A stretch of DNA of 64,000 nt from Segatella copri (GTDB taxonomy: Bacteria; Bacteroidota; Bacteroidia; Bacteroidales; Bacteroidaceae): NCBI GenBank assembly GCA_021615735.1, contig JAJWFY010000009.1, positions 21,527-85,526 on the forward strand. The letters run 5' to 3'. The stretch's first letter is position 1. Every line of letters starts with the position of its first letter. Of this stretch, positions 6,919 to 57,885 are shown piece by piece. The notes beneath the pieces were generated by a model. It worked only from the letters and a program-made list of their open reading frames with translations. It searched no databases and had not been told where the DNA came from. A program made the translations under genes and the position numbers.

Positions 6919-6920
6919 GG

Positions 6921-6956
6921 AGTGTTGAGTGTTGAATGTTAAATGTTGAGTGTTAA
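6921..6956 (+). repeat. Heptad array AGTGTTG/AATGTTA x5
   Basis: It begins 2 nt after the stop codon at 6916-6918. TGA/TAA triplets occur at 6926, 6933, 6940, 6947 and 6954, covering all three frames. Confidence 0.85.
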
Positions 6957-6978
6957 ATTATTCATTCTTAAATAAAAA

Positions 6979-8572: not shown

Positions 8573-8621
8573 TACTCTGTAATCACTACTCAGTAATCAG
8601 TAATCACTAATCAGTACTTGG
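8573..8621 (+). repeat. Heptad array TAATCAC/TAATCAG/TACTCAG x7
   Basis: Exactly 49 nt (7x7) fill the whole gap between the GT2 stop (8572) and the mfd ATG (8622). Confidence 0.85.
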
Positions 8622-12542: not shown

Positions 12543-13904
12543 ATGAGACAGAAAAAGTACATCTTAAGCGAGCAGGAACTTCCTACTCAGTGGTACAACA
12601 TTCAGGCAGATATGCCTAACAAGCCATTGCCACCGTTGAACCCTCAGACTCATCAGCCAATGAATGCTGATGACTTGTCACACGTATTTAATAAGGAGTG
12701 CTCAAAGCAGGAACTTGATACAGAGCATGCCTGGATTGATATTCCAGAAGATGTGTTGGAGAAGTACACCTTCTACCGTTCAACACCTCTTGTACGTGCT
12801 TACGCCCTTGAGGAGGCACTTGGTACGCCAGCGCATATCTACTTCAAGAATGAGAGTACCAACCCGTTAGGTTCTCATAAAATCAATTCTGCTATTCCTC
12901 AGTGCTACTATTGTAAGCAGGAGGGTGATACCAATGTCACAACAGAGACTGGTGCAGGTCAGTGGGGTGCAGCCCTTTCTTATGCAGCTAAGCTCTACGG
13001 TTTGGAGGCTGCGGTTTATCAGGTAAAGATTACCATGCAGCAGAAACCATACCGTTCTAGCATCATGCGTACGTTTGGAGCCACTGTAGAGGGTTCTCCT
13101 TCTATGAGTACACGTGCTGGTAAGAATATCATTACACGCGATCCTCATCATCCTGGTTCGCTCGGTACAGCCATCAGTGAGGCTGTTGAGTTGGCTACAA
13201 CCACACCGGGCTGTAAGTATACGCTGGGTTCTGTGCTCAATCATGTGGCACTTCACCAGACCATTATCGGTCTTGAGGCAGAGAAGCAGATGGCGATGGC
13301 AGGTGAGTATCCTGATCAGGTGATTGCTTGTTTCGGTGGCGGTAGTAACTTCGGTGGTATTGCCTTCCCATTCCTCCGTCATAACTTTACTGGCGAGCGC
13401 CATACTGAATTTATTGCTGCAGAACCAGAGAGCTGTCCTAAGCTGACTCGCGGTAAATTTGAGTACGATTTCGGTGATGAAGCAGGTTATACTCCATTGC
13501 TGCCAATGTTTACTCTGGGTCATGATTTCAAGCCTGCCAACATTCATGCCGGTGGTCTGCGTTATCATGGTGCGGGTATGATTATCTCACAGCTTCTGAA
13601 GGATGGTTATCTGCATGGTGTAGATATCCCACAGTTGGAGTCATTCAAGGCGGGTATGCTCTTCGCTCAAACTGAGGGTATTATCCCTGCCCCAGAGAGC
13701 TGTCATGCGATTGCAGCCACTATTCGTGAGGCTCAGAAGGCTAAGGAAGAGGGCAAGGAGAAGGTTATCCTGTTCTGTCTCTCAGGTCATGGTCTTATCG
13801 ATATGCCGTCTTACGATAGCTATATTAATGGCGATTTGCACGATTATTCTGTTAGTGATGAAGAAATCCAGCAGTTCCTCAAGGATGTGCCAAAGGTTGA
13901 GTAA
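12543..13904 (+). CDS. TrpB2-like PLP-dependent tryptophan synthase beta-chain homologue (stand-alone)
   Basis: The motifs are FKNESTNPLGSHKINSA (PLP lysine context), ETGAGQWGAA, CFGGGSNFGG and the long TrpB2-type N-terminal extension. The ATG at 12543 lies 37 nt after a -7 box. Confidence 0.85.
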   Translation: MRQKKYILSEQELPTQWYNIQADMPNKPLPPLNPQTHQPMNADDLSHVFNKECSKQELDTEHAWIDIPEDVLEKYTFYRSTPLVRAYALEEALGTPAHIYFKNESTNPLGSHKINSAIPQCYYCKQEGDTNVTTETGAGQWGAALSYAAKLYGLEAAVYQVKITMQQKPYRSSIMRTFGATVEGSPSMSTRAGKNIITRDPHHPGSLGTAISEAVELATTTPGCKYTLGSVLNHVALHQTIIGLEAEKQMAMAGEYPDQVIACFGGGSNFGGIAFPFLRHNFTGERHTEFIAAEPESCPKLTRGKFEYDFGDEAGYTPLLPMFTLGHDFKPANIHAGGLRYHGAGMIISQLLKDGYLHGVDIPQLESFKAGMLFAQTEGIIPAPESCHAIAATIREAQKAKEEGKEKVILFCLSGHGLIDMPSYDSYINGDLHDYSVSDEEIQQFLKDVPKVE

Positions 13905-13946
13905 TAGTTAATAGTTTATAGTTAATAGTTTATAGCAAACAGTTGA
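13905..13946 (+). repeat. Heptad array TAGTTAA/TAGTTTA x5-6
   Basis: It starts at the nucleotide after the trpB2-like stop codon. Confidence 0.85.
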
Positions 13947-21872: not shown

Positions 21873-22111
21873 AAAGAAAGAGGGTGTGTCATAAGTTTAT
21901 GATTCACCCTCTTCTTGTTGTTGGATGAGATAGGATATGTTGTTGGATGAGATAGGATATGTTGTTGGAAGAGATAGGATATGTTGTTGGAAGAGATAGG
22001 ATATGTTATTGAGACAGTCAGTATCTTCGGCCGCACAACAGCTGATGTGCATGCGTTGCTCAACTGTTATGCGCCAACTATTATCCAGACTTATGACACA
22101 CCCTCTTCTTT
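21873..22111. repeat. Three copies of a ~20-bp word AAGA(A)GAGGGTGTGTCATAAG bracketing the tandem array
   Basis: Copy 1 is 21873-21895 (+). Copy 2 is 21897-21916 (inverted and imperfect), forming a local hairpin with copy 1. Copy 3 is 22090-22111 (inverted), matching the copy-1 core at 17 of 17 positions. Confidence 0.85.
21917..22012 (+). repeat. 22-bp tandem repeat x4 plus a partial unit
   Basis: GTTGTTGGATGAGATAGGATAT x2, then GTTGTTGGAAGAGATAGGATAT x2, then GTTATTGAG. Confidence 0.9.
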
Positions 22112-23739: not shown

Positions 23740-23877
23740 CGCTTTTTTCCTGAAACCACCAAATATTTCTTCTTCTTTTTAAGAAATATTTTGGAAAAGA
23801 GCGAGTTATTCATTCATAAATTGTTTTTGAACGGATGGAAGTCAATACTTTTTGTTTTGCCACTCACCCCAGTTTTA

Positions 23878-24088
23878 CCCCACACGCCCTGAAAGGGCAG
23901 AAGCTCCTAGCCCAGGGCACCGCCCTGGGGATATTGACAGTTCGCAAGACGCCCTGTAAGGGCAAAAGCTTTAAAAACATTCGGGTTCAATGAAAGCTTT
24001 TGCCCTTACAGGGCGACAGGTTTGTGCCCGTAATTACCCAGGGCGATGCCCTGAGCTAGGAGCTTCTGCCCTTTCAGGGCGTGTGGGG
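23878..24088. repeat. 211-bp GC-rich nested palindrome (MITE/REP-like element or structured RNA)
   Basis: The outer arms 23878-23929 and 24037-24088 are complementary at 50 of 52 positions. The inner arms 23950-23972 and 23993-24015 are complementary at 23 of 23 positions. The loop is 20 nt. Each arm also has local hairpins (gccctgaaagggc, cccagggcaccgccctggg, gccctgtaagggc). Confidence 0.85.
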
Positions 24089-24125
24089 CAAATTTAGAAT
24101 GGCAATTAATTTTTCTTTTGTCATT

Positions 24126-35295: not shown

Positions 35296-37071
35296 ATGAA
35301 GAAGAAAATTCAGTTCAGTCTCGTTTATCGAGACATGTGGCAGAGCTCTGGTAAGTTCCAGCCACGCAAGGATCAGTTGGCTAAAATTGCCCCAGTTATC
35401 ATCGAAATGGGATGCTTTAGCCGTGTAGAGACTAACGGCGGTGCCTTCGAACAGGTTAACCTCCTGGCTGGTGAAAACCCTAACGATGCCGTACGCGCAT
35501 TCTGCAAACCTTTCAACGAGGTGGGTATCAAGACTCACATGCTCGACCGCGGATTGAACGCTCTTCGTATGTATCCTGTGCCTGATGACGTGCGCGCCCT
35601 TATGTATAAGGTAAAGGCTAAGCAGGGTACCAACATCACACGTATCTTCGACGGACTGAACGATGTGCGCAACATCATTCCTTCTATCAAGTGGGCTAAG
35701 GAGGGTGGCATGACTCCACAGTGTGCACTCTGTATCACCAACTCTCCTGTTCATACCCTGGAATATTACATGAACATCGCCGACCAGCTCATCGCTGCCG
35801 GTGCAGAGGAAATCTGTTTGAAGGATATGGCAGGTATCGGCCAGCCGGCATTCCTCGGCAAACTCACCAAGATGATTAAGGACAAGTATCCTGAGATCAT
35901 CATCCAGTATCACGGCCACTCAGGTCCTGGTCTCTCTATGGCTTCTATCCTCGAGGTCTGCAACAATGGTGCCGACATCATCGATACAGCCATCGAGCCA
36001 TTGTCATGGGGTAAGGTTCACCCAGACGTAATCTCAGTTATCAGCATGCTGAAGAACGAGGGCTTCGAGGTACCTGAAATCAACATGAGCGCTTATATGA
36101 AGGCTCGTGCTATGACTCAGGAGTTCATCGACGAGTGGCTCGGCTACTTCATCAACCCAGGTAACAAGATCATGTCTTCATTGTTGCTCGGTTGCGGTCT
36201 CCCTGGCGGTATGATGGGTTCTATGATGGCAGACCTCGGCGGTATGCGTCAGACCATCAACAACATTCGCAAGAAGAAGGGTGAGGAAGAGTTGTCTATG
36301 GACGACCTGCTCATCAAGCTCTTCGACGAGGTAGAGTATGTATGGCCACGCGTAGGTTATCCTCCATTGGTAACCCCATTCAGCCAGTATGTAAAGAACA
36401 TCTCACTGATGAACCTCCTCACCATGGAGCAGGGCAAGGGTCGCTTCGTAATGATGGACGACTCTATGTGGGGTATGATTCTCGGTAAGAGCGGTAAGAT
36501 TCCTGGAACTATCGACCCAGAACTCGTAGAGCTCGCCAAGAAGCAGGGCCGTGAGTTTACCGACGTAGATGCACACACATTGCTCACCAACGCCCTCGAC
36601 GACTTCAAGAAGGAGATGGACGAGAACGGCTGGGATTACGGTCAGGACGACGAGGAACTCTTCGAGCTCGCTATGCACCCAGAGCAGTATCGCAACTACA
36701 AGAGCGGACAGGCAAAGAAGAACTTCCTGGCCGACCTTCAGAAGGCAAAGGATGTCAAGCTCGGTACAACCCTTACTCCTGCACAGCTTGCAGAGTTCAA
36801 GCATGCCAAGGCAGATGCCATCGTGGCACCAGTAGCCGGCCAGCTCTTCTGGGAATTCCAGGGCGAGGGCGAGTGCCAGCCAGCTGTAGAGCCATACATC
36901 GGCAAGGAATATAAAGAAGGTGATGCCTTCTGCTATATCCAGGCTCCTTGGGGCGAGTTTGAAACCATCCCAGCTGCATTGGGCGGCAAGCTCGTAGAAA
37001 TCAATGCCAAGCAGGGCAGCAAGGTGCGCAAGGGCGATGTTATCGCTTACATCGAGCGAGAGGCTGAATAA
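35296..37071 (+). CDS. Oxaloacetate decarboxylase alpha / pyruvate carboxylase subunit-B-like carboxyltransferase with a C-terminal biotinyl-like domain lacking the biotinyl lysine
   Basis: The carboxyltransferase TIM-barrel motifs are VYRDMWQS (canonical TLRDxHQS), RIFDGLND, LKDMAGIG and QYHGHSGPG. The C-terminal domain is IVAPVAGQLF..GDAFCYIQAPWGEFETIPA..GDVIAYIE, with QAPWG where EAMKM is expected. Confidence 0.8.
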   Translation: MKKKIQFSLVYRDMWQSSGKFQPRKDQLAKIAPVIIEMGCFSRVETNGGAFEQVNLLAGENPNDAVRAFCKPFNEVGIKTHMLDRGLNALRMYPVPDDVRALMYKVKAKQGTNITRIFDGLNDVRNIIPSIKWAKEGGMTPQCALCITNSPVHTLEYYMNIADQLIAAGAEEICLKDMAGIGQPAFLGKLTKMIKDKYPEIIIQYHGHSGPGLSMASILEVCNNGADIIDTAIEPLSWGKVHPDVISVISMLKNEGFEVPEINMSAYMKARAMTQEFIDEWLGYFINPGNKIMSSLLLGCGLPGGMMGSMMADLGGMRQTINNIRKKKGEEELSMDDLLIKLFDEVEYVWPRVGYPPLVTPFSQYVKNISLMNLLTMEQGKGRFVMMDDSMWGMILGKSGKIPGTIDPELVELAKKQGREFTDVDAHTLLTNALDDFKKEMDENGWDYGQDDEELFELAMHPEQYRNYKSGQAKKNFLADLQKAKDVKLGTTLTPAQLAEFKHAKADAIVAPVAGQLFWEFQGEGECQPAVEPYIGKEYKEGDAFCYIQAPWGEFETIPAALGGKLVEINAKQGSKVRKGDVIAYIEREAE

Positions 37072-37185
37072 TGTTAAATGTTGAATGTTGAATGTTGAGT
37101 TGTCCCTTTCTGCAAAACAGCAAGGACACTTACGGCGCAAGCCCCATAATTCAACATTCAACATTCAACATTCAACATTTAATAT
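37072..37185. repeat. Composite element: TGTTGAA-type heptad arm, 48-nt core, inverted TTCAACA x4 arm
   Basis: The arms are 37072-37099 and 37150-37177, with 23 nt perfectly complementary. The core is 37100-37147. The element starts 1 nt after the stop codon at 37069-37071. Confidence 0.85.
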
Positions 37186-37745: not shown

Positions 37746-40607
37746 ATGAGAAAACAATCGACGATAGCTATGCTGCTGCTCGCTGCCATCTCGTGTATGA
37801 TGGTGGCTAACCCAGGTACGCCCGATTCGAAAAAGAAAAAGAAGAAGGAGAAGACGGAAACCGTGGACAGCGTGGGTGACAGTGTGTTCGTAGACTCGCT
37901 GGGCAACGAAATAAAGCCCAAACTGAAACAGGCTGACGACACCACGCAGATGGACTCGCTGCAGAAAGCTATATGGAAACATAATAAAGTGGTGGATGAC
38001 AGTATCCGCCTCGACAGTATCGCCAGAAAGAAACAGGGTGGAGTAGACGCACCGGTTAACTATCAGGCGGACGATTCTCTCGTATACGATGCCAAGAACA
38101 AGGTGGCATATCTCTACGGAAACTCCAACGTGAAGTATACCAACATGGACCTCAGTTCCGACCGCATCTCCATGGATATGGACAAGAGCAACGTGAAGGC
38201 GATGGGTACACCCGACAGTACGGCGGAGGGAGGCATCAAGGGCAAACCTGTCTTCAAGATGGGTAGCGATATCTATGATACCGACACCATCAAATTCAAC
38301 TTCAAGAGCAAGAAGGCCCTTATTAATAATGTATATACAGAACAGCAAGACGGATTCCTGACCGGTATGAAGTCGAAACGCGACTCATCGGGAGTCATCT
38401 ATCTGCAGCACGGAAGGTATACCACCTGCGATGATCCGCATCCCGATTTCTACATCTCGCTCTCCCGAGCCAAGGTAAGGCCGGGCAAGGATGTGGTATT
38501 CGGACCAGCCTATCTCGTGGTGTGCGATGTGCCTATGCCGCTTGCCATCCCTTACGGCTTCTTCCCGTTCACCAAGAGCTACAGCAGCGGTTTCATCATG
38601 CCAACCTACGGCGATGAAACGGCACGAGGATTCTATCTCAGAGATGGCGGATATTATTTCGCCATGAACGATAAATGGGACCTGAAGCTGCTGGGCGAGA
38701 TTTATACCAAGGGATCGTGGGGACTCTCGGCAGCCAGCAACTACCGAAAGAGATACAAATACTCGGGTTCCTTCTTCTTCAGTTACCAGGATACGAAGAA
38801 CGGCGACAAGGGAATGCCAGACTTTACCGAGCAGGAGAGCTTCAAACTGCAATGGAGCCACCGCCAGGACAGCAAGGCAAACCCATATAGTTCGCTTTCG
38901 GCAAGTGTGAACTTCGCCACATCGAGCTACGAACGCAATAACCTCAACTCGCTCTACAATCCGCAGACGATGACGCAGAGTACGCGAACCTCTTCCGTAA
39001 GCTGGAGCACCAACTTCTCGAGCATCGGAATGTCGCTCAGCTCTACCGCCAACCTCTCGCAGAATATGCGCGATTCATCCATCGCCATGACGCTGCCCGA
39101 CCTGAACATCAGCATCTCCCGCTTCTATCCGTTCAGAAGAAAGAAGATGGTGGGCGATGAGAAATGGTACGAGAAGATAGCCATGAGCTATACGGGACAC
39201 ATCTCTAACAGCATCAATACCAAAGAGGATAAGCTGATGCACAGTTCACTCATCAAGGACTGGCGCAACGGATGGCAGCATCAGATACCGGTGAGCGCTA
39301 CATTCACGCTCTTCAAATATCTCAACGTGAACCCATCGTTCAATTTCACCGACCGTATGTATACCAACAAGGTGGAGAGATCATGGGATGAAGCCAGCCA
39401 AACGGAGAAATGTGATACCATCTACGGTTTCAACAACGTGTATAACTGGAACATGAGCGTAGGTCTCTCTACCAAACTCTATGGTTTCTACATACCAAGC
39501 CGCAAGCTCTTCGGAGATAAAATACAGGCTGTGCGCCACGTGTTTACGCCTACGGTGAGCTTCAGTTATGCCCCAGACTTCGGAGCTTCACGCTACGGCT
39601 ACTGGGACACCTACCAGAAGACCGATGCCGACGGAAACGTATCGCTGGTGAGCTACTCGAAGTATGCCAATGCCCTCTACGGTGCGCCTGGCAAGGGTAA
39701 GAGCGGTAATATCTCGTTTACCCTGGGCAACAACATCGAGATGAAGGTGAAGAGCGATAAGGACTCTACCGGATACAAGAAACTCAGTATCATCGATGCG
39801 TTCGACATCAATATGAGTTACAATACCGCAGCCAAGGTTCGCCCTTGGAGCGATATGAACATCAACCTCAGACTGAAATGGTGGAAGAACTATACCTTCA
39901 ACATGAACGCTGTGTTTGCCACCTATGCCTACGAGCTGGACGACCAGAACAATGTTTATGTGGGTACCCATACGGAGTGGGGCAAGGGCAGGTTCGGACG
40001 ATTCCAGGGTATGTCGCAGAACTTCTCGTTCACACTGAACCCGGAGAAGCTGAAGAAACTCTTTGGCGGGGGCGATGATGAGGACGACAAGAAGGACAGC
40101 CAGCGCAATGATGATGACGATGAAGGCCTGGATACCGACATCGAGAGCAACGTAGACGACAGCATGGAGAAGGGTAAGACGGCAGCCAAGAAGGGCGGCA
40201 AGGCTGAAACGGATTCAGATGGTTATATGGCGTTTAAGATGCCATGGTCGCTGACCTTCGGTTATGGTGTAACGATGCGCGAGGATACGCGAAGAGAGAA
40301 GTTCAATGAGAAGACGATGCGCTATGCATATAAGTTTACCCAGACTCTGAACATGAGTGGTAACGTAAGAATCAGTGATGGCTGGAACATCAGTTTCTCA
40401 TCCGGTTATGATTTTGACAACCACAAGATCAGTATGACCACCGCCAGTTTGGCTCGTGATCTTCACTGTTTTAACATGAGCTGTTCTGTGGTTCTCGCTC
40501 CATATACGAGCTACAACTTCACCTTCCGTTGTAACGCAGCCACCCTGACAGATGCGCTGAAATACGACAAGCGCAGCGGTTATTCGAACGCTGTACAATG
40601 GTACTAG
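37746..40607 (+). CDS. lptD: LptD-like LPS-assembly outer-membrane protein (Bacteroidetes type)
   Basis: 953 aa with a signal peptide. The OstA-like N-terminal segment is VNYQADDSLVYDAKNKVAYLYGNSNVKYTNMDLSSDRISMDMDKSNVKAMG, followed by a long beta-barrel. An acidic insert is present (GGGDDEDDKKDSQRNDDDDEGLD). Confidence 0.7.
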   Translation: MRKQSTIAMLLLAAISCMMVANPGTPDSKKKKKKEKTETVDSVGDSVFVDSLGNEIKPKLKQADDTTQMDSLQKAIWKHNKVVDDSIRLDSIARKKQGGVDAPVNYQADDSLVYDAKNKVAYLYGNSNVKYTNMDLSSDRISMDMDKSNVKAMGTPDSTAEGGIKGKPVFKMGSDIYDTDTIKFNFKSKKALINNVYTEQQDGFLTGMKSKRDSSGVIYLQHGRYTTCDDPHPDFYISLSRAKVRPGKDVVFGPAYLVVCDVPMPLAIPYGFFPFTKSYSSGFIMPTYGDETARGFYLRDGGYYFAMNDKWDLKLLGEIYTKGSWGLSAASNYRKRYKYSGSFFFSYQDTKNGDKGMPDFTEQESFKLQWSHRQDSKANPYSSLSASVNFATSSYERNNLNSLYNPQTMTQSTRTSSVSWSTNFSSIGMSLSSTANLSQNMRDSSIAMTLPDLNISISRFYPFRRKKMVGDEKWYEKIAMSYTGHISNSINTKEDKLMHSSLIKDWRNGWQHQIPVSATFTLFKYLNVNPSFNFTDRMYTNKVERSWDEASQTEKCDTIYGFNNVYNWNMSVGLSTKLYGFYIPSRKLFGDKIQAVRHVFTPTVSFSYAPDFGASRYGYWDTYQKTDADGNVSLVSYSKYANALYGAPGKGKSGNISFTLGNNIEMKVKSDKDSTGYKKLSIIDAFDINMSYNTAAKVRPWSDMNINLRLKWWKNYTFNMNAVFATYAYELDDQNNVYVGTHTEWGKGRFGRFQGMSQNFSFTLNPEKLKKLFGGGDDEDDKKDSQRNDDDDEGLDTDIESNVDDSMEKGKTAAKKGGKAETDSDGYMAFKMPWSLTFGYGVTMREDTRREKFNEKTMRYAYKFTQTLNMSGNVRISDGWNISFSSGYDFDNHKISMTTASLARDLHCFNMSCSVVLAPYTSYNFTFRCNAATLTDALKYDKRSGYSNAVQWY

Positions 40608-40642
40608 ATGATAGTTTATAGTTGAAAGTTTATAGTTAATAG
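40608..40642 (+). repeat. Heptad array (ATGATAG TTTATAG TTGAAAG TTTATAG TTAATAG)
   Basis: It starts directly after the lptD-like stop codon (40605-40607). Confidence 0.8.
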
Positions 40643-40656
40643 AGCTTTTCAGCTTA

Positions 40657-40713
40657 TAGATAAAACAAAAAAAACAGGCAAAATCATTTTGCCTGTTTTT
40701 TTTGTTTTATCTA
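40657..40713. terminator. Perfect 57-nt palindrome, bidirectional terminator (lptD-like on +, helicase on -)
   Basis: tagataaaacaaaaaaaacaggcaaaat-c-attttgcctgttttttttgttttatcta. The GC core is caggc/gcctg, with A8/T8 runs built into the stem. Confidence 0.65.
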
Positions 40714-40723
40714 TATTACTTTT

Positions 40724-42460
40724 TTACCTTTTTACCCTTAAAAGCCTTTTTTTCGCCTCCGGGTGCTCTGGATAAAGGGTGAGGGCCTTGCGGTAATTCA
40801 TGATGGCAGCCTCTTTCATGCCCTCTTTTTCGCACTCCTTCCCCATAATCACATACTCCGTGGCAAGGCGCTTGAGGAACTTCTTCTGCTTCTCCTTCTC
40901 TTCATCCTTCTTTCTTATTTCTTCGCGCAACCGCTCGTTCTCTGCCTGAAGTTCGTTCACCCTGTTCAGCTTTTTGCGGATGAAACGCTTGGCAAGCGGC
41001 TGCTCGATGTCATAACGACTGTGGATGGCAAGGAAGAAGTTGTCGAGAGCCGACTGCATATCGCCCCTGTCAAAGGCCTTGACGGCATCATGATACTGTT
41101 TGTCGGCCTTACTCTGGGTAAGCGCTGTATTGATGGTGCTCTGGTCGTTGTAATGACGGGCAAACTGCTTGACATCATTGCGCACGAAAACATCACTCTG
41201 ACGCAACGGCTCCTGAAGACTGATGCCCTCGAGACTGGTGCAGCGGGACAAGGCAACATACGTCTGTCCGCCCGCAAAGACACCACCCGTGAAATCAATC
41301 TTCACCTGGTTGAAGGTGAGGCCCTGGCTCTTATGAACCGTTATCGCCCAAGCCAGACGGATGGGGTACTGCTCGTATCTGCCAATCTCTTCCTCCTCAA
41401 TCTTTTTCTCAACCTCATTGAAATGGTATCTCATGTTGCTCCATGCCGCAGGCTCCACCATCACATCCTTGCCTTCCTCGGTGCGCACATAAATCTTGGC
41501 ATCCTCATCCTCATCAAAACCGATGATGGTGCCCAGCGTGCCATTCACCCACTGATGCTCGATATCATTCTTGATGAAGATAACCTGAGCCCCCGTCTTG
41601 AGGTAAAGCTCGATAGGGGTAGGGAGACTGCTCTCCGGAAACTCGCCCTGTATGTGGCCACGGAAGAGGCAAGGCTCTCCCGGAAGACACTGGAGCTGGC
41701 TGTCGTTGATGTAATCTACCGTATCGCGGCGTGTAGAGAGGGTGATGGCAAGTTTGGAATCGCTCTCATCGAGCTGGGCTCCCACGCGCTGGTTGAGGCG
41801 CTGTAGATCCTGCATGGGCACCTGAGACGTGCGGATATGGTCGAGGATGCTGATGAAAACGGGATCGCTCTGACGGTATACCTTCTTGAGTTCGATGCTC
41901 ACGAGCTTGAAGTATTCGAACACCTTGGCATCGAAGAAGAAACTGCTGCGGTAGAAGGGACTGAGCAGACGGCGGTCTTCCTCTCTTACCACAGGCTCCA
42001 GCTGGAAGATATCGCCCACCAGAAGCAGCTGCTTGCCACCGAAAGGCTCTCGCATGTTGCGGCAATATACCCGCAATACCTTGTCCAGGAAATCGATGAT
42101 ATCGGCACGAACCATACTGATCTCATCGATGATGATGAGCTCTACCTCGCGGATAATCTTTATCTTCTCTGAATTATACTTCAGGGTGTTGCGGATGTTG
42201 CGGACGGAATACATGCTGTCGTTGGGCAGCAGCGGGTGGAAAGGAAGCTTGAAAAAGCTGTGGAGCGTGCTTCCTCCGGCGTTGATGGCCGCAATGCCTG
42301 TTGGGGCAAGAATGATATGTTTCTTCTTGGTATTGGCGGCTATATAACGTAAAAAAGTAGATTTACCCGTCCCCGCCTTTCCGGTAAGGAAAAGCGAACG
42401 ACGGGTAAACTGTATGATTTGGAGTGCATTCTGCAACTCCGGGTTGTCGAGATCAATCAT
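40724..42460 (-). CDS. Pif1/RecD-family SF1 DNA helicase with a C-terminal coiled-coil/TPR tail
   Basis: LFLTGKAGTGKST is the Walker A motif. The other motifs are ILAPTGIAAINAGGSTLHSFF, IIIDEISMV, LLLVGDIFQLEPV and ITVHKSQGLTF. The tail is YRKALTLYPEHPEAKKRL. Confidence 0.85.
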   Translation of the reverse strand: MIDLDNPELQNALQIIQFTRRSLFLTGKAGTGKSTFLRYIAANTKKKHIILAPTGIAAINAGGSTLHSFFKLPFHPLLPNDSMYSVRNIRNTLKYNSEKIKIIREVELIIIDEISMVRADIIDFLDKVLRVYCRNMREPFGGKQLLLVGDIFQLEPVVREEDRRLLSPFYRSSFFFDAKVFEYFKLVSIELKKVYRQSDPVFISILDHIRTSQVPMQDLQRLNQRVGAQLDESDSKLAITLSTRRDTVDYINDSQLQCLPGEPCLFRGHIQGEFPESSLPTPIELYLKTGAQVIFIKNDIEHQWVNGTLGTIIGFDEDEDAKIYVRTEEGKDVMVEPAAWSNMRYHFNEVEKKIEEEEIGRYEQYPIRLAWAITVHKSQGLTFNQVKIDFTGGVFAGGQTYVALSRCTSLEGISLQEPLRQSDVFVRNDVKQFARHYNDQSTINTALTQSKADKQYHDAVKAFDRGDMQSALDNFFLAIHSRYDIEQPLAKRFIRKKLNRVNELQAENERLREEIRKKDEEKEKQKKFLKRLATEYVIMGKECEKEGMKEAAIMNYRKALTLYPEHPEAKKRLLRVKR

Positions 42461-42570
42461 TGTATTTAATTTATAGTTTATAATTTATAGTTTATAGCAT
42501 AAGCCACATTAAATCGCCTTCTTGCTAAACGGCGTAGCCGCTATAAACTATAAATTATTAACTAAATTTA
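42461..42570. repeat. Composite element: AGTTTAT/AATTTAT arm, 43-nt core, inverted ATAAACT arm
   Basis: It fills the whole gap between the PBP1A stop (42568-42570) and the helicase ATG (42460). 19 nt of the arms pair perfectly. The core is 42498-42540. Confidence 0.85.
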
Positions 42571-45117
42571 AAGATCATCGAAGTTGACAGGCTGCTCCGT
42601 TGGCTTGGCCTTCTTCTTCTCTTTCTTTTCTTCTGTGGTGGCTGTACCGTTGGCAGATTCGCTTTCAGCCTTCTTGGCAGGAACTTCGCGGATGATAGGG
42701 TTGCCTTCGTCATCGAGAACGATCTCTTCCTGGAAGGCGGTACTGTCTACCTTGGTGGTATCTACCTTTGGCTTTGGTGCATAGCTTGCACAGATGTACA
42801 TATCGCGGGTGATATCGCTGTCCTGTGGCTTGTCAAACTTGCCGTGATACTGCTGGAAGACTGGGTCGCCAAAGACACTCTGGAGGAAGTAACCGCACAC
42901 AGGAAGAGCGGTTCTGGATCCCTGACCCAATGCTCCGGTGCGGAAGTGGAGACAGCGGTATTCGCCTCCTACCCAGGCACCAACTACGAGCTTAGGGCTC
43001 ACACACATGAACCAGGCATCGGAGTGGTTATTGGTGGTACCTGTCTTGCCACCGAACTCAGTATCACGGTAGTTGTCTACATAGCCCCAGAGACTCTGGG
43101 ATGTACCTCCCGGCTCCTTCATACCGCCCTGTAAGAGCTGCTGCATGAGGAAGGCACTCTTGTAAGGTATCACCTGCTCGGAATCGGTAGGCCCCTCGTA
43201 AACCACCTTACCGTCGTGGTCTACAATCTTGGTAACCAATACCGGGTCGTGGTGCTTGCCATTGTTGGCAATGGTGCTGTAGGCGCATGCCATCTCCAGG
43301 AGGTTGACATCGCTGGAACCGAGGGCGAGAGAAGGGGTGTCATCCAGCGGACTGTTGATACCCATCTTCTTGGCTGTCTCGATGATGCGCTTGATGCCCA
43401 TCTCCTGTCCTAATCTTACAGCCACAGAGTTGATACTCTTGGCAAAGGCACTCTTCAATGGGATACTGTCGCCCGAGAACGAACCGTTGGCATTGGATGG
43501 ACGCCAGATGGTCATTTCGTGCTTCTTCTTATCGTATACCTCCATAGAGATATATTCGTCGCGACGCTTATCACAAGGGGTTAAACCCTGATTCATCGCC
43601 TCGGTATATACAAAGAGTTTGAAGGTAGAACCAGGCTGGCGCTCGGCTGTTACCTTGTCATACTTCCAGTGGTCGAAGTCGATATCGCCCACCCATGCCT
43701 TTACTGCTCCGGTCTGTGGCTCCATGGCTACAAAGGCGCAGTGCATGAAGGTGGTCATATACTTGATGGAGTCTTCTGATGTCATGTTCATCGTGATGCT
43801 GCCCTTGTCATAATCGAATACCTTAACCGGGTGAACCCACTCCTTATAGTAATAGTTTACTGAGTCGGGATTATCAGGGAAGCGGGCAACCAATGCCTTG
43901 TAGAATGGCTGGCGCTCGGCGATGCCCTGGATGAAGTTTGGTATCACGTTGTGGTTCTCATCCTGCCAAGGATCCTGACCCATCCAGTTGCCTTTGCCTG
44001 CCTGGGTACGGCGGATGCTCCAGTGGTTGTTGAAGTTCTGCTGTACCTGTTTCATCTGCTTGCGGGCTGCATCTTCTGCATACTTCTGCATGCGGGTATC
44101 GATGGTGGTATAAATCTTCAAACCGCTGGTATAGAGGTCGTAACCTTCGTCTTTACACCAGTCTTTCAGGTAGTTGGCTACTGCCTCACGGAAGTATTTA
44201 GCCTGTCCGTCGTAGTTTTCTTCTACCTTGAAATCGAGCTTGATAGGCTCATCTTTCAGTTCATTGTATCTGTCTTTTGAGAGATCGCCATGTGTCACCA
44301 TATTATATAATACGGTGTTGCGGCGTGCAAGACTGTTCTCCGGGTTGGTGCGTGGGTTGTAGTAGGTGGTAGCTTTGAGCATGCCCACGAGCACGGCAGC
44401 CTGACCGGTGGTCAACTCCTTAGGGGTGGTGTTGAAGTAGGTCTTCGCAGCGGTTTTGATACCATAGGAATTGCTACCGAAATCTACCGTATTAGCATAC
44501 ATGGTGATGATTTCCTTCTTGCTGAACACCGTTTCGAGTTTAACCGCGATGATCCACTCCTTGCTCTTGATGATGAGCAGGCGGAGTACAGGAATCTTGC
44601 CCAGCAAACCGGTAGAATATTGCGAACGTACACGGAACATGTTCTTCGCCAGCTGCTGTGTGATGGTAGAAGCACCGCGCCCGTTATGATGGAGGAGTGC
44701 ATCCTTGGCAGCAGCAAACACGCCGATAGGATCGATACCGATATGCTTGTAGAATCGTTCATCCTCGGTATCTACCAGTGCCTTGAAGAAATCGGGTGTT
44801 ACCTCACCATATTCTACCGGAGTACGGTTTTCGTTGAAATACTTGCCGATGAGTTTTCCATCAGCCGAATAGATTTCAGAGGCCTCTGAGGTCTGTGGAT
44901 CCAGAATGCCTGAGAAATAGCCAGGCGACTTGCCGAAGAGCCATAAGAAGTTGATATCTACTGCGCCCAGATACAAGATGAAGGCGACTATGCAACTTGC
45001 CAAGGCAACGAGGGTCTTGGTATACCACGCCCTGCCCTGATACAATCCCTTGTACCAAGGCCAGAATGCGCGAAACTTTTGCCATAACCAGGCAAAGAGA
45101 GCTTTAATTTTATTCAT
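42568..45117 (-). CDS. mrcA: Class A penicillin-binding protein 1A (glycosyltransferase plus transpeptidase)
   Basis: The GT51 motifs are EDERFYKHIGIDP and GASTITQQLAKN. The transpeptidase motifs are PGSTFK (SxxK), SxN and KTGTT. Confidence 0.9.
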   Translation of the reverse strand: MNKIKALFAWLWQKFRAFWPWYKGLYQGRAWYTKTLVALASCIVAFILYLGAVDINFLWLFGKSPGYFSGILDPQTSEASEIYSADGKLIGKYFNENRTPVEYGEVTPDFFKALVDTEDERFYKHIGIDPIGVFAAAKDALLHHNGRGASTITQQLAKNMFRVRSQYSTGLLGKIPVLRLLIIKSKEWIIAVKLETVFSKKEIITMYANTVDFGSNSYGIKTAAKTYFNTTPKELTTGQAAVLVGMLKATTYYNPRTNPENSLARRNTVLYNMVTHGDLSKDRYNELKDEPIKLDFKVEENYDGQAKYFREAVANYLKDWCKDEGYDLYTSGLKIYTTIDTRMQKYAEDAARKQMKQVQQNFNNHWSIRRTQAGKGNWMGQDPWQDENHNVIPNFIQGIAERQPFYKALVARFPDNPDSVNYYYKEWVHPVKVFDYDKGSITMNMTSEDSIKYMTTFMHCAFVAMEPQTGAVKAWVGDIDFDHWKYDKVTAERQPGSTFKLFVYTEAMNQGLTPCDKRRDEYISMEVYDKKKHEMTIWRPSNANGSFSGDSIPLKSAFAKSINSVAVRLGQEMGIKRIIETAKKMGINSPLDDTPSLALGSSDVNLLEMACAYSTIANNGKHHDPVLVTKIVDHDGKVVYEGPTDSEQVIPYKSAFLMQQLLQGGMKEPGGTSQSLWGYVDNYRDTEFGGKTGTTNNHSDAWFMCVSPKLVVGAWVGGEYRCLHFRTGALGQGSRTALPVCGYFLQSVFGDPVFQQYHGKFDKPQDSDITRDMYICASYAPKPKVDTTKVDSTAFQEEIVLDDEGNPIIREVPAKKAESESANGTATTEEKKEKKKAKPTEQPVNFDDL

Positions 45118-45874: not shown

Positions 45875-45927
45875 AATTATTGCTATATTTAACGCTAATT
45901 ATTGCTATATTTAACGCTAATTATTTG
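45875..45927 (+). repeat. 22-bp tandem repeat x2 plus a partial unit
   Basis: AATTATTGCTATATTTAACGCT x2, then AATTATTTG. Confidence 0.85.
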
Positions 45928-46584: not shown

Positions 46585-46617
46585 GTGAAGAGTGAAAAAT
46601 TCAATTGCTTCGCTAAT

Positions 46618-46684
46618 CATAAAGTTCAAAGTATCAAAAGTTCTAAGTATAATTTAAAGTATCAAAGAAAAAGTATCAAAGAAT
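46618..46684 (+). repeat. 14-nt (2x7) periodic array AAAGTAT CAAAGAA
   Basis: aaagttc aaagtat caaaagt tctaagt ataattt aaagtat caaagaa aaagtat caaagaa. It ends just before the SDR ATG at 46685. Confidence 0.7.
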
Positions 46685-47440
46685 ATGAATAAAATTGCTC
46701 TTATTACAGGCGCAACAAGCGGTATTGGCGAAGGTTGTGCACGTCGTTTTGCCCGTGGCGGCTATAACCTGATTCTTACAGGTAGAAACACGGGAAAGTT
46801 GGAAATCCTGAAGAAAGAACTCGAGGCTGAGGGCGTTGAGGTGCTTGCCTTGGCTTTCGATGTGCGTAACCGTGAAGCTGCCAAGAAAGCGGTGGATTAC
46901 ATCCCTGAGGAGTGGCGCAATGTGGATGTGCTTATCAATAATGCGGGACTCGCACGTGGATTGGAACCTGAATATGAGGGCGATTTTGAAGATTGGGATC
47001 AGATGATTGATACCAATATTAAGGGCCTTTTAACCATGACTCGCCTGATTGTACCTGGTATGGTGGAGCGTAATCATGGTCATGTAATCAATATAGGTAG
47101 TGTGGCGGGTGATGCTGCTTATGCGGGAGGTAATGTATATTGTGCTACCAAAGCGGCTGTAAAGGCTATTACAGACGGCTTGCGCATTGATGTGGCACAT
47201 ACGAAAGTGCGTGTTACCAATGTGAAACCGGGTTTGGTTGAAACCAACTTCTCTAACATCCGTTTCCATGGTGACCAGAACCGCGCAGACAACGTTTACC
47301 GCGGCATAGAGCCTCTGAACGGCGATGACGTGGCTGATGTAGCCTTCTATGCTGCAAGTGCTCCAGAACACGTGCAAATAGCTGAGGTTCTGGTTCTTGC
47401 TACGCATCAGGCTAACGGAACCGTGATACACAGAAGCTAG
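46685..47440 (+). CDS. SDR-family NADP-dependent oxidoreductase (YdfG-like)
   Basis: ITGATSGIGEG is the TGxxxGxG motif. NNAG and the catalytic YCATKAAV (YxxxK) are present. Confidence 0.9.
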   Translation: MNKIALITGATSGIGEGCARRFARGGYNLILTGRNTGKLEILKKELEAEGVEVLALAFDVRNREAAKKAVDYIPEEWRNVDVLINNAGLARGLEPEYEGDFEDWDQMIDTNIKGLLTMTRLIVPGMVERNHGHVINIGSVAGDAAYAGGNVYCATKAAVKAITDGLRIDVAHTKVRVTNVKPGLVETNFSNIRFHGDQNRADNVYRGIEPLNGDDVADVAFYAASAPEHVQIAEVLVLATHQANGTVIHRS

Positions 47441-49293
<1,853 letters not shown>

Positions 49294-49891: not shown

Positions 49892-50764
49892 ATGAATATA
49901 TTAGTAACAGGCGCTAATGGTCAATTGGGACATGAAATGCAAATCTGTGCCCAAAAAAGCAATCACAAGTTTGTCTTCACCGATGTGGCTGAAGGCTATG
50001 AAAAACTGGATATCACCAATCTTGACGCTATCCGAGAAAAGGTGAGGGAGAATGATATTCAGGTAATTGTTAACTGCGCTGCTTATACCAACGTAGATAA
50101 GGCTGAAACAGATTACGATCTGGCTAATCTGCTCAACAATACTGCTGCGGGAAATTTGGCACAGGCTATGAAGGAGGTAGATGGTACTTTGATTCATGTA
50201 TCTACCGACTATGTTTTTCAGGGCGACAAGAATATACCTTGCCGTGAAGATTGGGAAACGAATCCTTTGGGGGTATATGGTAAAACGAAACTTGCAGGCG
50301 AAAAGAGTATTGAAGCTACTGGATGCAAGCATATCATCATCCGTACAGCATGGCTCTACTCGCAGTGGGGTAAGAACTTCGTGAAGACCATGCAGAGTCT
50401 CACGGCAAGCCATGACACCCTAAAGGTGGTCTTCGATCAGGTGGGTACTCCAACTTACGCTGGCGACCTGGCTGCTGTCATCTCACATATCATCGAAACT
50501 GACCAGTTGGATAAGACGGGCATCTACCACTTCTCTAATGAGGGTGTCTGCTCTTGGTTTGATTTCGCTAAGATTATCTGCGAACTGAGCGGAAATACTT
50601 GCGATATACAGCCTTGCTACAGCGAGGAGTTCCCAAGCCCAGTGAAGCGTCCTCACTTCTCTGTACTTGACAAGAGTAAGCTGAAGCAGACTTTCGGATT
50701 CAAGGTGCCATACTGGACTGACAGTTTGAAGAAGTGCATCGCTGAATTGGCGGCAGCAAAATAA
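49892..50764 (+). CDS. rfbD: dTDP-4-dehydrorhamnose reductase
   Basis: MNILVTGANGQLG, NCAAYTNVDKAE, STDYVF and YGKTKLAGE form the RmlD pattern. Confidence 0.9.
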   Translation: MNILVTGANGQLGHEMQICAQKSNHKFVFTDVAEGYEKLDITNLDAIREKVRENDIQVIVNCAAYTNVDKAETDYDLANLLNNTAAGNLAQAMKEVDGTLIHVSTDYVFQGDKNIPCREDWETNPLGVYGKTKLAGEKSIEATGCKHIIIRTAWLYSQWGKNFVKTMQSLTASHDTLKVVFDQVGTPTYAGDLAAVISHIIETDQLDKTGIYHFSNEGVCSWFDFAKIICELSGNTCDIQPCYSEEFPSPVKRPHFSVLDKSKLKQTFGFKVPYWTDSLKKCIAELAAAK

Positions 50765-50790
50765 TTATTAATTATAAATTATTAATTGAA
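50765..50790 (+). repeat. Heptad array TTATTAA/TTATAAA x3
   Basis: It fills the rfbD-rfbB gap, from the stop at 50764 to the ATG at 50791. Confidence 0.7.
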
Positions 50791-57829: not shown

Positions 57830-57843
57830 GTGAGGAAGGATAA

Positions 57844-57885
57844 TTCAACACTCAACATTCAATATTCAACATTTAACATTTAAAT
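57844..57885 (+). repeat. Heptad array TTCAACA-type x6 (reverse complement of the 6921 family)
   Basis: ttcaaca ctcaaca ttcaata ttcaaca tttaaca tttaaat. It ends 3 nt before the menC GTG start. Confidence 0.8.

Follow-up and report, generated by a model that had tools for sequence, protein, structure and literature searches.

The window analysed here is a 64,000-nt stretch of Segatella copri DNA. It contains a PBP1A gene with Transgly and Transpeptidase domains (42568-45117, minus strand) and, as its downstream neighbour, a gene encoding a PIF1-like helicase (40724-42460, minus strand). Positions 42461-42570 correspond exactly to the 107-nt gap between these two genes plus the PBP1A stop codon. 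A sequence-only reading of this DNA had proposed that a 110-nt hairpin with perfectly pairing 19-nt arms fills the entire gap, and the gene coordinates as well as the arms bear this out. The hairpin, which we refer to as element A, is ~100 nt long, has terminal inverted repeats and contains no ORF (Table 1). Its arms are perfectly complementary over 19 nt (42480-42498 and 42540-42558), and complementarity extends to 25 nt at 96%. The 5' arm supplies a stop codon to each of the three frames, and 13 nt separate the end of the 3' arm from the helicase ATG. By eye, no match to the Bacteroidetes promoter motif TAnnTTTG was seen in the arms. Folding of the sense-strand RNA yielded a free energy of -35.4 kcal/mol (z = -5.7), a value equalled by none of 200 shuffled sequences, and in the folded structure ~16 nt remain unpaired from the PBP1A stop codon to the helicase start codon. 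Orthologues of element A were found in 7 GTDB S. copri species.

Table 1. Positions of hairpin elements and solo heptamer arrays in the window
Feature	Position	Strand	Remarks
Element A, whole hairpin	42461..42567	(-)	fills the gap from PBP1A stop to PIF1-helicase start
Element A, 5' arm (sense strand)	42540..42566	(-)	tandem 7-mers TTAATAA/TTTATAG/TTTATAG
Element A, core (loop), GGCTACGCCGTTTAGCAAGAAGGCGATTTAATGTGGCTTAT	42499..42539	(-)	41 nt, GC-richer than the arms
Element A, 3' arm (sense strand)	42472..42498	(-)	CTATAAA-type 7-mers
Element B	47438..47549	(+)	family and arm type of A; core (47477-47514) inverted relative to A
Element C	37070..37185	(+)	AATGTTG/CAACATT arms; 46-nt core with GGCGCAAGCC; carboxylase-HD gap
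Solo array, TTAATAG/TTTATAG	13902..13944	(+)	starts at stop codon; no inverted partner
Solo array, TTTATAG-type	40605..40642	(+)	after LptD stop codon; adjoins terminator ~40655-40715
Solo array, GTTGAAT-type	6920..6958	(+)	short gap
Solo array, ATTCAAC-type	57840..57883	(+)	after stop codon; reverse of C-type arm
Two further solo 7-mer arrays	8573-8618, 50760-50787		short gaps

The earlier reading had also noticed the core of element A in inverted orientation at a second locus, and this observation held. A search of the window with the core pattern GGCTNCGCCGTTNAGCAAGA returned two copies, at 42520-42539 on the minus strand and 47477-47496 on the plus strand, versus 0.01 expected from shuffled sequence for this 20-nt pattern. 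The second copy belongs to element B, which is situated where an SDR gene and a DUF6377 gene converge and overlaps the stop codon of each. Arm length of element B varies among strains by 7-nt steps. A covariance model (R1) was built from 11 A/B-type sites, and a match to this model defines the A/B-type core family. Within the window R1 scored element A at 93 bits and element B at 98 bits and found no other members. The third core that had been proposed, at 37100-37147, lies in element C. This element is indeed a strong hairpin (fold z about -10) that has short motifs in common with A and B, namely ACGGCG..AGCC and a CTTGC-like block. However, it scored only 20 bits on R1 (E about 0.1), no better than an ordinary terminator at ~40655-40715. 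Judged by its sequence, element C is a different subfamily and not a member of the A/B type.

The terminator at ~40655-40715, located where the LptD and helicase genes converge, is canonical and bidirectional. It consists of a 30-nt perfect palindrome with A/T runs, and its presence means that ordinary terminators coexist with heptamer hairpins in this genome. We considered whether element A is itself an intrinsic terminator and rejected this assignment, as its stem is AT-rich and has no T-run, which sets it apart from 40655-40715.

All six solo heptamer arrays in the window begin at or just past a stop codon. As most of their heptamers hold a stop codon, these arrays stop all three reading frames. 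Heptamers of another kind, CAAAGTT/CAAAGTA, form arrays at 46616-46684 in the window and in two of the loci used for comparison (L numbers; L005:7828-7860 and L009:3402-3427). In these cases the common motif ATCATAAAGTTCAAAG precedes the array and the start codons of unrelated genes directly follow it. The window also contains perfect 22-nt tandem repeats at 21916-22011 (4.4 copies) and at 45875-45925 (2.3 copies); the latter is upstream of a histidine-phosphatase gene and is kept in all strains compared.

Searches beyond the three loci in the window were carried out with exact patterns, nhmmer and an array census. Scanning one genome per species for the exact pattern returned ~27 matches, every one of them from the Segatella copri complex or an unnamed Prevotella, as well as ~23 chance matches inside coding sequence of unrelated phyla. 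A stricter pattern that excluded A and B gave 53 metagenome matches, all from human-gut S. copri and corresponding to 5-6 sites. Together these searches identified ~13 distinct sites with an A/B-type core, all of them in the S. copri complex, in agreement with the proposal that a repeated element with a core shared beyond chance is embedded in operons. Plasmid and phage databases contained only low-complexity arm matches and unannotated faecal contigs resembling S. copri fragments. Without exception, sites of the core family lie between the stop and start codons of same-strand neighbours or between convergent genes. With the adjacent genes as reference, the core is oriented one way at 10 sites and the opposite way at 2, with 1 site convergent. 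Long cores are 38-42 nt, while short cores are 23-25 nt and are without the 3' block. The solo arrays that occupy many gaps of the window raise the question of whether element A is a chance inverted arrangement of low-complexity arrays common in this genome; among long simple repeats, those with heptamer units are the most frequent type in many bacteria (Mrazek 2007, as cited in PMC4679880). Recurrence of a 20-nt core against an expectation of 0.01, at ~13 sites within one species complex, refutes this explanation, to which we assign a negligible probability.

We then consider the possibility that these elements are a cis-regulatory RNA or a protein-binding module conserved for its core, as the sequence-only reading had suggested. 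In an alignment of 11 sites GGCT-N-CGCCGT and AGCA were invariant, with N being A, G or T, and RNAalifold predicted the arm stem plus two mini-hairpins in the core, GGC(UNC)GCC and GCA(AGAU)UGC. Two arm pairs showed compensated changes. No covariation was detected in the core across these 11 independent sites, because the core pairs never vary. Rfam returned nothing at gathering or permissive thresholds, the best score being 22 bits versus a threshold of 55. Divergence among orthologous cores is roughly on a par with that of the coding sequence around them. Moreover, the core occurs in both gene orientations, short cores are without the 3' block, and close relatives have empty alleles (see below). 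The variable N had made a GNA triloop on the opposite strand (GCGNAGC) attractive, and this idea was discarded since L080 has GGCTTAGCC and orientation is not fixed. From these data we conclude that a regulatory or protein-binding role for the core is quite unlikely.

Comparison of orthologous gaps revealed that the elements are polymorphic. In a sister S. copri clade (P0088; L052-L061), whose helicase is 91% identical, the PBP1A-helicase gap is empty and consists of 9 nt (TAAtattttaacATG). In L025, L047 and L051, which represent three GTDB species, a C-type hairpin occupies this gap; in L012 its place is taken by a GC-rich palindrome of 274 nt. A protein search for more distant helicase homologues, which would have provided further orthologous gaps, gave only matches of at least 91% identity. 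The carboxylase-HD gap that contains element C is empty (11-15 nt) in L014, L017, L020 and L058, while in L060 and L083 it is occupied by an element of the A/B type. Empty alleles were also found at each of the L082b, L009a and L104 sites. Other gaps had empty alleles in addition to alternative hairpins with GTGAAGA, TAATTTA or 9-mer arms. A pair of empty and filled alleles at the L009a site indicated that the insertion splits a stop codon (TA|A), which fits either a TA duplication or none, and other strains carry a different A/B core in the opposite orientation at this site. At several sites the entire gap differs between alleles, and hence allelic exchange by homologous recombination could give rise to the polymorphism without transposition. 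These comparisons show that the family exists and that each copy is dispensable, that the same gaps are multi-allelic, and that arm length shifts in 7-nt steps. The hairpin of element A is thus genuine and belongs to a small S. copri family of repeats that strains can do without.

The palindrome found in L012 belongs to a family that has another copy in the window. This copy, at 23866-24092, is an intergenic GC-rich nested palindrome with 56-nt arms that are 95% complementary and an inner perfect 23-nt inverted repeat.

Elements with the same arms that carry a gene were also identified. The aroE-purM gap of several S. copri strains contains a 450-nt element (L082:3987-4438) in which TTTATAG/CTATAAA arms surround a gene for a four-helix-bundle protein of 119 aa that matches TIGR02436 (115 bits) and PF05635 (100 bits); this gap is 50 nt in other strains. 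Between the arms, GGCTTTTCTGACT precedes the ATG and GCAAGAATG follows the TAA. When fused, these two inner ends agreed with GGCTTCGCCGTTTAGCAAGATTG, the short core, at 16 of 23 positions, a match with a shuffle p of about 0.003 that was seen in only one of the two orientations. The closest homologues of the cassette gene (72-81% identity) occupy the same gap in other species, where they are bracketed by inverted TAAGAAT/ATTCTTA heptamers instead. More distant homologues in the brxB-brxC, Peptidase_S11-tRNA methyltransferase and LysE-DUF4924 gaps have yet other inverted heptamers, and these genes invariably point the same way as their neighbours. In all, orthologous and paralogous PF05635 genes of Bacteroidales were found between other inverted heptamers at four further gap contexts. 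The earlier description of a conserved core with interchangeable arms is correct for orthologous cassettes, in which TTTATAG arms in one species and TAAGAAT arms in another surround an inside that is kept, but not for the three hairpins on which it was based: A and B have the same arm type, and C differs in both arms and core.

The four-helix-bundle ORF of L082 (4040-4396) contains an in-frame TGA for Trp, and that of L114 is frameshifted, while the ORF is intact in L088, L092, L110 and L112. This pattern suggests ongoing decay of the cargo gene.

A second type of cargo was observed at L113:6605-7105 and also in L009, L093 and L099. Here inverted tandem 9-mers (CACGGATTA) flank a 133-aa GxxExxY / PDDEXK_3 gene (PF13366). 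In other strains this gap is empty or contains an A/B-type hairpin, and a hairpin with the arms of the GxxExxY cassette and no ORF is present at another gap. A GxxExxY paralogue that is 46% identical (L040:7100-8000) has ~57-nt flanking tandem repeats with CACGAAT motifs.

In 8 of 9 gene-carrying elements, PF05635 and GxxExxY types combined, the upstream and downstream gaps are complementary to one another (z from -3.4 to -11). These results show that gene-carrying relatives with the same arms exist and that arm complementarity is kept as arm sequence changes. Such drift with complementarity maintained is a sign that the stem is selected for, or that some mechanism keeps the two arms coupled. 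One form of such selection would be a transcript structure maintained by the host, i.e. an attenuator, a terminator or a barrier to 3' exonucleases that tunes expression of neighbouring genes, much as E. coli REP/BIME elements have been proposed to set the relative expression of their neighbours. Apart from the retained complementarity, this explanation is consistent with the position of every site after a stop codon, with element B being the only hairpin between its two convergent genes, and with a canonical terminator hairpin as the alternative allele at the L064 site. However, no U-tract follows the stem, although terminators with U-tracts occur nearby (40655-40715), and the elements are dispensable in sister clades. 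We consider host selection of this kind unlikely as the primary explanation.

The reading that we favour, and regard as probable, is that element A is an ORF-less (MITE-like), internally deleted derivative of a heptamer-bracketed PF05635 cassette that forms a long stem in operon mRNA. The parent would have been a small four-helix-bundle PF05635 gene located between inverted tandem-heptamer arrays and co-oriented with the host operon. The conserved core would then correspond to the fused inner ends of the cassette, persisting by common descent rather than function, and the ends expected in common with cassettes would be GGCT.../...AGCAAGANTG. In the polycistronic mRNA the arms would form a stem of 25-35 bp. 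Folding of this stem would leave a stop-to-start distance of ~16 unpaired nt, similar to the 9-17 nt that empty gaps measure, and for this reason insertion within operons may be tolerated. The stem may also be a substrate of RNase III, by analogy with intervening sequences (IVS) of 23S rRNA. IVS-type insertions carry 23S_rRNA_IVP ORFs, and IVS stems are cut by RNase III (bioRxiv 10.1101/2024.02.27.582315). PF05635 comprises the ORFs of 23S rRNA intervening sequences, and Avd, a DGR protein, is a relative of this family. As PF05635 ORFs are found in rRNA insertions that RNase III cuts, processing of the mRNA stems by this enzyme is a reasonable hypothesis. Spread could occur by insertion or by gene conversion between arrays. 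A role in transcript structure is compatible with derivation from a cassette as a secondary effect.

Several points argue against derivation from a cassette. The similarity spans only about 20 nt; when the fused cassette ends were compared with element A itself p was about 0.05, and the comparison with B alone was not significant. The extra 15 nt of long cores (CAAAGYGGTTYATG) are unaccounted for by the cassette ends. In addition, neither a transposase nor a clear target-site duplication was found at the loci compared, and allelic exchange could suffice to explain the polymorphism.

A broader version of the cassette hypothesis can be put forward tentatively, as a possibility that we hold with less confidence than the origin of element A. 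Bacteroidales might contain a class of promoterless operon-gap cassettes, each carrying a PF05635 gene or a GxxExxY PD-(D/E)XK nuclease gene between inverted heptamers (9-mers for GxxExxY) and set exactly from stop to start. Their stems would restore the proximity of the neighbouring genes or be excised by RNase III, and A-like elements would be their ORF-less remnants. If true, the intergenic heptamer arrays, the IVS/Avd-like and GxxExxY genes of Bacteroidales, and the S. copri hairpins would be one kind of element, which would colonise tiny gaps within operons. The four-helix-bundle ("IVS protein", Avd-like) and GxxExxY genes are abundant in Bacteroidales and have no known function. Multi-allelic gaps, of which S. 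copri has many between stop and start codons, are useful for strain typing and bear on how operons are expressed in a major species of the human gut, as well as on assembly breaks at repeats.

Among known systems, 23S rRNA IVS resemble the elements described here in having a long stem of inverted flanks around a short loop or a four-helix-bundle ORF, in the PF05635 family of the gene-carrying relatives, and in being sporadic, dispensable insertions. The bracketing stem with or without a PF05635 ORF is thus common to both. In contrast to IVS, which interrupt 23S rRNA helices, all of our sites lie between protein-coding genes, in the stop-to-start gaps of mRNA, and the arms are tandem heptamers.

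Correia/NEMIS, ERIC, RUP and BOX are MITEs that fold in mRNA. Like them, the elements described here are small, non-coding, co-transcribed inverted-repeat elements that are polymorphic among strains. They differ in their low copy number, in arms made of simple repeats that change by 7-nt slippage, and in having a related full-length element that carries a four-helix-bundle gene. The terminal inverted repeats, small size and absence of coding capacity are those of a MITE; among the loci compared, no transposase-bearing parent was found, and the cargo of the element sharing these arms is a PF05635 gene instead.

REP/BIME elements of Enterobacteria also form hairpins at gene 3' ends and in operons, and none of the sites that we observed is in a divergent promoter gap. 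Element A even contains GTAG (GGCGTAGCC), which brings to mind a REP mobilised by a RAYT (Y1 HUH) transposase or a palindrome-associated element of the IS200/IS605 type. This tetranucleotide is not conserved, however, being GCAG in B and GAAG in others. Unlike REPs, which have a conserved GTAG/CGTC tag and 20-40 nt palindromes in hundreds of copies, these elements are AT-rich with tandem heptamer arms, measure ~100 nt including a large loop, and number about ten. Mobilisation by a RAYT or IS200/IS605-type transposase is accordingly very improbable. Integron attC sites were considered as well, because C-type heptamers fit GTTRRRY; this assignment was rejected since the flanking genes are core housekeeping genes and A/B arms do not fit the motif.

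Heptamer arrays as such have precedents. Cyanobacterial STRR sequences are intergenic heptamer direct repeats. Heptamer arrays between genes have been described from other phyla and from a small number of Bacteroidetes (PMC4679880). The literature searched, which covered S. copri hairpin/MITE repeats, GxxExxY and PF05635 cassettes, yielded no description of inverted heptamers bracketing a core or gene. A preprint reports a ~159-bp near-palindromic, MITE-like S. copri repeat without duplications, which may or may not belong to the A/B family. A close parallel to the arrays themselves is provided by the TAACTGA direct repeats (MacGregor 2015, PMC4679880), which likewise occupy short gaps directly before start codons, provide stops in three frames and vary in copy number. 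TAACTGA sets are inverted in only 1 of 170 cases (PMC4679880), whereas the elements described here consist of other heptamers, arranged as inverted pairs on either side of a core or gene.
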